A stretch of DNA of 64,000 bases, taken from a virus. Within the stretch, counting starts at the first letter, position 1, and each line of letters opens with the position of its first letter. The stretch is from positions 1 to 64,000 of IMG/VR virus record IMGVR_UViG_3300025949_000022. One strand, 5' to 3'. Below are positions 59,664-61,413 of this stretch, piece after piece. The notes under the pieces were generated by a model. It was not told where the DNA came from. It saw only the letters and a program-made list of their open reading frames with translations, and searched no databases. The position numbers and the translations under genes are program-made.

Positions 59664-59764
59664 TTACTGCCAAATCCCCATGACTTTCAGGGTCTATGGG
59701 GTAGCATACATTCACCGTTGTAGCGGCTTCGATGCTGATATTGGCAGATTGCTAAGACTTAGCA
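59664..59764 (-). ncRNA. Candidate structured RNA (palindromic hairpin plus three-way junction closed by CTGCC/GGCAG-TAA)
   Basis: TGCTAAG/CTTAGCA; CTGCCAA/TTGGCAG; AGCAT/ATGCT; CCCCAT/ATGGGG. Confidence 0.5.
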
Positions 59765-60030: not shown

Positions 60031-60092
60031 TTACTGCCTTAACCTCAAGCCTTGTGAGCGTTGAGGTGGCAGACCCTGATACGTATCAGGGC
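60031..60092 (-). ncRNA. Candidate structured RNA related to 59664-59764
   Basis: CCCTGATACGTATCAGGG palindrome, then CTGCC-ACCTCAA...TTGAGGT-TAA-GGCAG-TAA. Confidence 0.45.
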
Positions 60093-60382: not shown

Positions 60383-60853
60383 TTATTTGTTTTCTAAAAT
60401 AACATCTTGCCAATAGTTAGCGCCTTGTGGTGAATCACTAATGTAAAATGATGTTAAGATGGCCTCTTCTAAATCCCTTGCTGGATTTTTCCATTTGCTC
60501 TTAGCTGTATTGTCAAACGCGGCTATCCTTGCCTCTTGTGGCAGGGCTTCAAAAAAGTCGCGCACCATTGGAATTTTCTTTGCCTGAATATCATCTGGGT
60601 CGGCATCATAATAAGAGGAATCAAGGCCTTTAGAATCCGGTTTTGGGCTAAAAAAAATAACCAGCCCTTTATCGGACCTTTTTATTAAAACATCCGACCA
60701 TTGCAGTGAATTTGACACTGTCAAAACATCCCCGTTTCCCATTTCTTTGGTAAAGCACCGGATAACACCATCGGGTAGGACAGATACATTTTCAGCCCCG
60801 AAGTTTTGTACTGCGAAATCATTTGTACAAACTGCATTTACATTTTCTTGCAT
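60383..60853 (-). CDS. Hypothetical protein, paralog of 39500-39943
   Basis: Start re-called to MQENV from the paralog alignment. Confidence 0.75.
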   Translation of the reverse strand: MQENVNAVCTNDFAVQNFGAENVSVLPDGVIRCFTKEMGNGDVLTVSNSLQWSDVLIKRSDKGLVIFFSPKPDSKGLDSSYYDADPDDIQAKKIPMVRDFFEALPQEARIAAFDNTAKSKWKNPARDLEEAILTSFYISDSPQGANYWQDVILENK

Positions 60854-60881
60854 AATACATTTTTTAATTTTAATCGACATT

Positions 60882-60931
60882 GATTAAGACCGCATTAGCG
60901 GTTTCGCTGAACTACAGCTCGTCAGTTAATC
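60882..60931 (-). ncRNA. Type I hammerhead ribozyme
   Basis: GAUUAA-CUGACGA-GCUG(UAGUU)CAGC-GAAA-CCGC(UAAU)GCGG-UC-UUAAUC: complete core and three stems. Confidence 0.9.
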
Positions 60932-60943
60932 TTTTGTGTTTAG

Positions 60944-61030
60944 TTAAATAGTTAGCAATTGATAAACTGCGAATATTAATACTATTGTTGCGATTGCGCC
61001 GATTAGTAATGATTTGTTTAGATTTTTCAT
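60944..61030 (-). CDS. Small hydrophobic peptide (28 aa)
   Basis: MKNLNKSLLIGAIATIVLIFAVYQLLTI between promoter and ribozyme. Confidence 0.5.
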   Translation of the reverse strand: MKNLNKSLLIGAIATIVLIFAVYQLLTI

Positions 61031-61067
61031 GTTTGATACGTTTTTTAATTTGCCTTGATTGACGATG

Positions 61068-61099
61068 TAAATATAAAGCGTTAAATTATCATTTCCAAA
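61068..61099 (-). promoter_or_regulatory. Sigma-A-like promoter of the early leftward operon
   Basis: TTTG-N20-TATATTTA. Confidence 0.65.
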
Positions 61100-61149: not shown

Positions 61150-61413
61150 ATGAACAACAGAGTATATGGCGTGTTTGCCGCTATAATCGATAACAATATT
61201 ATAGTCATAGATTTTAATCTTAAAGACTTTTATAAGCAATTTGTGAATAAATGGTCTTGCTTTGATATGAATTATCAGGCGTTATACCGGCGTTTTAAAA
61301 AGTCGGATGCCTTTGAAATGGAACTTAGCGGGGTTGTTATTCATCTCCAGTGCATCATATTGAAGCCGCAAGCAAAGAGAAAAAAAGAAATTAAGCCTCG
61401 TACTTATAAATAA
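61150..61413 (+). CDS. Hypothetical protein, probably leaderless
   Basis: TACTTTTG 4 nt before ATG. Confidence 0.6.
   Translation: MNNRVYGVFAAIIDNNIIVIDFNLKDFYKQFVNKWSCFDMNYQALYRRFKKSDAFEMELSGVVIHLQCIILKPQAKRKKEIKPRTYK

Follow-up and report, generated by a model that had tools for sequence, protein, structure and literature searches.

What would a self-cleaving RNA do between two small genes of a tailed phage, and how firmly can such an element be recognised from the DNA that encodes it? The stretch of DNA analysed here (the window) comprises the first 64 kb of an IMG/VR record of an uncultured phage; the record is 75,103 bp long, has direct terminal repeats and is rated 100% complete. Between a short hydrophobic ORF and the gene for a 156-aa protein, in a neighbourhood where the genes lie on the minus strand, there is a 54-nt element that, judged by its sequence, is a genuine type I hammerhead (Table 1). 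Intergenic phage hammerheads are already known, having been in print since 2011, and the window copy adds one member. The role of hammerheads in phages has been an open question for as long, and the window copy amounts to a small natural experiment on it. Our main reading, to which we assign a probability of roughly 0.7, is that this hammerhead would cleave itself and separate the message of the small ORF from that of the downstream gene.

A type I hammerhead between two small genes

Read directly on the minus strand, the element has every position of the catalytic consensus. C3-U4-G5-A6-N7-G8-A9 reads CUGACGA at 60925-60919, G12-A13-A14 fall on 60905-60903, H17 is C60888, and A60902 pairs with U60889. 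The core-adjacent pairs of the other two helices are Watson-Crick as well (G60918-C60906 at 10.1-11.1 and U60887-A60926 at 1.1-2.1). Perreault et al. 2011 (PMC3088659) accepted hammerheads on the same grounds, namely three helices whose core-adjacent pairs are Watson-Crick.

Chance tests on the window point the same way. A type I descriptor applied to both strands matched the window at this element and nowhere else, whereas a loose type I motif turned up in 2 of 300 dinucleotide shuffles of the window and an equally good one in none. Folded alone, the 54 nt adopt the hammerhead fold as their minimum free energy (MFE) structure, at -13.3 kcal/mol. The sequence-only reading had described a canonical type I hammerhead, and this description is borne out by the core positions, the three core-adjacent pairs and the shuffles, as well as by the two models introduced below. 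Hammerhead cleavage produces 2',3'-cyclic phosphate and 5'-OH ends, and the cut position after residue 17 follows from the hammerhead consensus. Cleavage between 60888 and 60887 is likely on this basis, and the direct reading predicts it at the same position as had been proposed earlier.

Table 1. Features of the hammerhead locus, in window coordinates.
Feature	Position	Strand	Basis
Promoter-like site TTGGAA-17-TATATT (sigma-70-like)	61098-61070	-	consensus match only
Leader copy 1, AAATTAAAAAA then CGTAT, 10 nt upstream of the small-ORF ATG	61051-61041	-	motif search, alignment
Putative 28-aa ORF; about 22 hydrophobic residues follow two Lys near the N-terminus	61030-60944	-	ORF reading
Type I hammerhead, including A-rich 5' flank	60935-60882	-	direct reading, descriptor, shuffles, folding, models R1 and R2
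A-rich flank of the hammerhead	60935-60932	-	read directly
Stem I, 6 bp (5' strand with 3' strand)	60931-60926 with 60887-60882	-	read directly
Core CUGACGA	60925-60919	-	read directly
Stem II, 4 bp with 5-nt loop, closing pair G10.1-C11.1	60918-60906	-	read directly
GAA between stems II and III	60905-60903	-	read directly
Stem III, 5 bp with 4-nt loop, closing pair A15.1-U16.1	60902-60889	-	read directly
C17	60888	-	read directly
Predicted self-cleavage site, after C17	60888/60887	-	hammerhead consensus applied to the read sequence
Second GATTAA (copy of the stem I 5' strand), pairs with the stem I 3' strand	60870-60875	-	sequence reading, folding
Leader copy 2, AAATTAAAAAA then TGTAT, 6 nt before the MQENV ATG	60870-60860	-	motif search
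Downstream gene, 156-aa protein (MQENV...)	60853-60383	-	ORF reading, homologues

Genes and leaders around the hammerhead

The 28-aa hydrophobic ORF described earlier is present upstream of the hammerhead, with 12 nt between its stop codon and stem I. It had been called toxin-like; hydrophobicity is the one feature behind that label, and the ORF matched no PHROG family. The possibility that this upstream region is a structured small RNA instead of an ORF received no support from folding (z -0.96, with 34 of 200 shuffles folding as well). The promoter proposed earlier corresponds to the sigma-70-like consensus match in Table 1, and a consensus scan of 1.2 kb gave 11 promoter-like sites, where shuffles gave 4.9 +/- 2.2. 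The -10-like block of the match in Table 1 falls in a stretch that is conserved, by alignment, upstream of the homologous gene in two related loci (L050 and L048). That the transcript would be an early one was an assumption of the sequence-only reading.

The downstream gene starts at 60853, 34 nt after the predicted cut. All eight homologues for which an N-terminus is available begin MQ(E/D/V)NV, which makes it improbable that translation begins at the earlier in-frame ATG, at 60880; the spacing of 34 nt given in the earlier reading thus has eight homologues behind it. The 156-aa protein had no Pfam, PHROG or PDB-sequence match, and its Atlas model was of low confidence and gave no usable Atlas match.

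Two other features of the neighbourhood may be recorded here. An 87-aa ORF on the plus strand (61150-61413) starts 119 nt from the ATG of the small ORF; since it lies on the opposite strand from the small ORF, the region between them would hold divergent promoters. Searched against a collection of 5.8 billion proteins, its product found only itself. The next two junctions of the operon (60031-60092 and 59664-59764, minus strand) each form a double hairpin, a palindromic one followed by a CTGCC...GGCAG stem. We considered whether these spacers might be decayed hammerheads and rejected the idea, as they show no core motifs by eye and no matches to either of our models. A single operon therefore has two kinds of structured spacer.

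Rfam models do not call the element

The check proposed with the earlier reading, a search with Infernal and hammerhead models, does not recover the element when the Rfam models are used, all of which stay below their cut-offs. Nothing in the whole window reached a gathering score, and a 501-nt stretch searched at E <= 10 matched no hammerhead family. RF00163 (Hammerhead_1, gathering score 34 bits) had no match in the 75-kb genome at either E <= 0.001 or E <= 10. Weak matches appear only when stretches of 70-119 nt are searched, where RF03152 (the RAGATH-1 hammerhead), the best-aligned Rfam family, scores 20.8-24.0 bits against a cut-off of 56.3 and RF02275 (Hammerhead_HH9) 15.1 bits against a cut-off of 52. 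By Rfam criteria, then, the window hammerhead is outside RF00163, RF03152 and RF02275.

The weak alignments to RF03152 and RF02275 nevertheless place the core in the same register as the direct reading. The window copy resembles RF03152 in being of type I and in having a short stem I after an A-rich stretch, followed in register by CUGANGAG ... CGAAAC ... GUC. It differs from that model, which has a very short stem II and a stem III of 9 bp, in having stems of 4 bp and 5 bp, and the conserved 5' hairpin of RF03152 is not convincing here, being aligned with a 5-column gap and non-standard pairs. With RF00163 and RF02275 the window copy shares the open stem I permutation and the same core.

A class of type I hammerheads in phages

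A search of IMG/VR for similar elements gave a very different picture. The scan pattern fixed the A-rich flank, the core, CGAAAC and GTC and left all stems free; it matched at least 100 stretches, compared with 11 for a control pattern in which the letters were shuffled within each block. Among the matches listed, which come from 80 loci, there were 81 pattern matches, and 72 of these have all three stems although none was required. Removal of duplicates reduced these 72 (stem I of at least 4 bp, stems II and III of at least 3 bp each) to 58 unique copies, of which 41 share the layout of the window copy, with a 6-bp stem I and a 4-bp stem II closed by a 5-nt loop.

Covariation in the 58 unique copies, from which the window copy was excluded, is strong: 13 of 16 pairs are doubly changed, and 97.5% of pair cells are standard, a percentage that is inflated by the preselection of the rows for stems, which does not affect the variety of pair types. 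The covariation score was 0.698 as against 0.134 in shuffles, and none of 500 shuffles scored as high. Model R1, built from these 58 copies without the window copy, gave the window copy 60.3 bits (E 3.8e-13), within the range of roughly 29-75 bits obtained for class members, and part of this score arises by construction because the letters of the scan pattern were drawn from the window copy. The only other R1 match in the window, at 53489-53457 on the minus strand, scored 15.7 bits; this stretch has AAAAG and a 6-bp stem with a 16-nt loop, has no ribozyme core and is probably a chance match.

The bias of the pattern was checked with a generic type I descriptor, which found 52 further unique copies outside the pattern in the same loci. 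Four with elements longer than 64 nt were dropped and the other 48 were used, including a degenerate-looking one (L072:2710-2772). Their pairs covary in the same manner (97.7% paired, 14 of 16 pairs doubly changed, score 0.829 against 0.182 in shuffles). Model R2, built from off-pattern copies, scored the window copy at 60.9 bits (E 5.2e-13), which was its sole match in the window at E <= 10, and it reduces the pattern bias without removing it.

The off-pattern copies also show the architecture of the class. Of the 52, 49 have a stem I of exactly 6 bp and 41 a stem II of 4 bp with a 5-nt loop; there is an A at -1 in 50 of 52 and an A at +1 in 51 of 52, and positions 1 and 5 of loop II are U in 41 of 41. 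The class can thus be described as having an open stem I of 6 bp that begins with G and ends with A, an unpaired A on either side of it, a stem II of 4 bp closed by a 5-nt U...U loop, and a stem III of 5-7 bp with a tetraloop. The window copy fits this layout (6 / 4+5 / 5+4) and shares class features that the search had not imposed, namely A at -1, +1 and +2 and U at positions 1 and 5 of loop II. It departs from the class at position 3 of loop II, which is G in the window copy and A in 79 of 86 class copies. The conserved flanking A residues and the U residues of loop II hint at a possible tertiary contact between stems I and II, of the kind that hammerheads use for activity at low Mg2+.

These data bear on whether the element could be a chance motif in AT-rich intergenic DNA, unrelated to real hammerheads. 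It falls below the Rfam cut-offs, is the sole copy in the 75-kb genome and is not conserved in two relatives, and where many windows are scanned, rare chance motifs are to be expected somewhere. Chance would nevertheless have to account for a good motif that no shuffle equalled, for more than 60 bits against a model made from the copies of other phages, and for shared features that had not been asked for (exact stem lengths, flanking A, loop II U1 and U5, and placement between stop and start codons). We consider such a coincidence extremely improbable. To judge from its layout and its model scores, the window hammerhead is a clear member of a widespread class of type I hammerheads at phage gene borders.

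Placement at gene borders and the proposed mechanism

Members of the class occupy a very regular position. An ATG-started ORF of at least 30 aa begins no more than 120 nt after the cut in 108 of 113 unique copies, and the distance from cut to ATG has a median of 24 nt (interquartile range 21-28, range 2-114; 34 nt in the window). On the upstream side, the distance from the stop codon to stem I has a median of 9.5 nt (n = 82), close to the 12 nt of the window copy. The downstream ORFs are small, with a median of 74 aa. PHROG searches with 103 proteins encoded downstream of class members revealed no common family; most of the matches are to families of unknown function, and one is to an anti-restriction protein. 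The absence of a common family among these 103 proteins indicates that the element is tied to gene borders and not to a particular gene.

Class members also tend to occur several at a time. Over the 80 listed loci (650 kb) R1 gave 151 matches, none with E above 0.001 and frequently more than one to a strand, and the descriptor found more than one copy on 25 of 62 locus-strands, with spacings of 146-2129 nt. One array (L072:2288-8607, plus strand, in IMGVR_UViG_3300030382_001968) has 14 R1 matches on one strand in 6.3 kb, roughly one ahead of every small gene.

This placement fits the suggestion of the sequence-only reading that the ribozyme would separate the small ORF from the genes that follow. 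It also fits the proposal of Perreault et al. (PMC3088659) that hammerheads in phages divide long transcripts into mRNAs for single genes; the same paper reports that clustered prophage hammerheads cleave both in vitro and in vivo. Under our main reading, a transcript that starts near 61062 would carry the 28-aa ORF and then the ribozyme. Once 60882 had been transcribed, the RNA would fold as a hammerhead and cut after C60888. The 5' piece of about 175 nt would contain the small ORF and have at its end the hairpins of stems II and III and a 2',3'-cyclic phosphate; the 3' piece would begin with a 5'-OH at 60887 and carry a 34-nt leader, the 156-aa gene and the following genes. Cutting would uncouple the two messages in stability and in translation.

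A competing hairpin

Folding of the full leader complicates this scenario. A second GATTAA downstream of the cut repeats the 5' strand of stem I, and its pairing with the 3' strand of stem I (60887-60882 with 60875-60870) gives a hairpin that is 1.5 kcal/mol better than the ribozyme fold (-16.1 against -14.6). At equilibrium, the pair probability of stem I in the full leader is about 0.002. The hammerhead is the MFE structure until 12 more nt have been transcribed. Because the competing hairpin is the more stable, cutting would have to be co-transcriptional, and it may be partial or tuned. The hairpin would also cap the 5' end of the cut 3' message. The sequence-only reading did not include this hairpin. 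Most class members behave differently: with 30 nt of downstream sequence included, 94 of 111 keep stem I in the MFE structure, and the window copy is among the 17 that lose it.

The competing hairpin and the G at position 3 of loop II together argue for a reduced cleavage efficiency of the window copy. One may therefore ask whether it is a hammerhead by descent that cuts poorly or not at all, and that serves mainly as a stable pair of hairpins between genes. The other junctions of the operon, with their double hairpins that are not hammerheads, would be in keeping with this, as would the remark by Perreault et al. (PMC3088659) that slow or inactive hammerheads may exist among those of phages. 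However, every position of the catalytic core is intact, and an identical stem I is found in six class members. Moreover, the energy models ignore the tertiary contact suggested above, and the interval before the competing strand is made leaves co-transcriptional cutting plausible. On balance, we regard a poor or inactive ribozyme at this site as rather unlikely, and continue to favour self-cleavage that separates the two messages.

The same two helices could also be read as a designed switch. Stem I and the downstream hairpin would compete under kinetic control, exerted by the speed of transcription or by a ribosome that terminates 12 nt upstream, and the outcome would fix how much mRNA is coupled relative to uncoupled. 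The arrangement is suggestive, in that two mutually exclusive 6-bp helices share one 3' strand and the stop codon is so close to stem I. But the competitor is not a feature of the class, as the first 6 nt of the 3' product are mostly paired in only 18 of 111 class copies, and two AT-rich 6-nt copies at a distance of 50 nt could arise by chance or as a by-product of leader duplication. A regulatory switch of this kind seems quite unlikely to us, both as a design and in the proposed routes of its kinetic control.

A further pairing was considered for loop II. AACTA occurs at 60941-60945 and 60949-60953 on the minus strand, 9 and 17 nt upstream of stem I, and is complementary to all five bases of the loop. 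A pseudoknot between loop II and AACTA is possible, but we keep it as a weak suggestion, as a nearby 5-mer match is not rare and the class points to the flanking A residues instead.

Relatives and the origin of the arrangement

Close relatives of the locus are scarce in the collections that we searched. A blastn search with 1.2 kb against GenBank phages gave no match, a query with a 165-aa protein against IMG/VR returned nothing, and exact and loop-fixed DNA patterns gave 0 and 0 matches. Across 45 loci with a related primase (about 0.5 Mb; one at 78% identity, most others at about 45%), the descriptor found no hammerhead of any of the three permutations, and R1, applied to 12 of the 45, gave nothing above noise.

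Two distant relatives (L048/L049, which are one contig, and L050) do have a gene homologous to that of the 156-aa protein, at 41-58% identity. Neither of these two, which are the relatives covered by the upstream comparison, has a ribozyme before this gene; the closest homologues are 67% and about 50% identical. Directly before the homologous gene both have a promoter-like block and an A-rich leader, whose counterpart in the window, by alignment, is the stretch upstream of the 28-aa ORF. The 11-nt AAATTAAAAAA also precedes the homologous MQENV gene in L048 and L050. Within the window it occurs only twice, in the same direction and 181 nt apart, once on either side of the small ORF and the ribozyme. 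The relatives thus have the order promoter, leader, gene, and the window phage has promoter, leader, small ORF, ribozyme, leader, gene, a difference that points towards a role for the ribozyme as a border or insulator.

A comparison of three sequences makes the small ORF, the ribozyme and the second leader copy look like a single insertion, about 180 nt long, in an ancestral leader, an arrangement that was not part of the earlier reading. Because these three look like one inserted module, the ribozyme probably acts as a border that would return to the resident gene its own short leader. A wider view, which we put forward tentatively as a possibility that falls well short of even odds, is that the ORF, the hammerhead and the second leader form a portable module of about 180 nt bounded by the leader direct repeats, with the ribozyme as a natural insulator. 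A new small gene would slip in between the promoter and leader and the resident gene, and cleavage would restore the short 5' leader of the latter. If general, such insulation would explain both the fixed distance of about 24 nt to start codons and the arrays in fast-evolving regions of accessory genes.

Comparison with known hammerheads

Insulation by a hammerhead has an engineered counterpart. Synthetic ribozyme insulators such as RiboJ were reportedly introduced by Lou et al. in Nat Biotechnol in 2012. RiboJ is an engineered hammerhead from a plant satellite RNA that is placed just upstream of the ribosome-binding region of a gene, and its cleavage leaves a fixed short 5' leader whatever lies upstream. 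The likeness to the window hammerhead is a functional analogy, and we claim no relatedness.

Among natural examples, the hammerheads of phages and prophages described in PMC3088659 are the closest in setting. They share with the window copy the canonical core and the sense orientation between small genes of a polycistronic transcript, and their clusters flanking single genes have a parallel in the arrays of the class collected here. As far as the available text goes, the published emphasis is on type II hammerheads with a pseudoknot in clusters of two or three, whereas the window copy is of type I and single; the array of 14 copies mentioned above holds more copies than the double and triple clusters described there. 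A 2026 paper (PMC13725137) describes type I as the usual form of hammerhead in bacteria and bacteriophages. The hammerheads that this paper reports are from RNA-virus genomes and resemble the window copy in being of type I and located just upstream of ORFs, with a longer helix III; in the available text they are reported without loop-loop contacts. The window hammerhead differs from them in being DNA-encoded in a tailed phage and in having a 4-bp stem II and the conserved flanking A and loop II U residues. Our literature search returned no publication on this specific class beyond the papers cited, and Dataset S1 of PMC3088659 may already include it.

Rfam passes over other members of the class too. 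Twenty class-bearing loci (among L052-L130; 133 kb) did not reach the gathering score of any Rfam 15 family, and since the class members in them, like the window copy, remain below the cut-offs, they are missed by routine annotation. The same blindness means that two copies in the cultured Pelagibacter phage Eistla (MT375521) have also been missed. This phage offers a cultured system in which experiments on the class could be done. Its two copies, L151:4002-4048 and L151:5256-5296 on the plus strand, lie upstream of the RNA polymerase gene in the unannotated gaps gp15/gp16 and gp19/gp20, and have a 6-bp stem I in which GTAACA pairs with TGTTAC.
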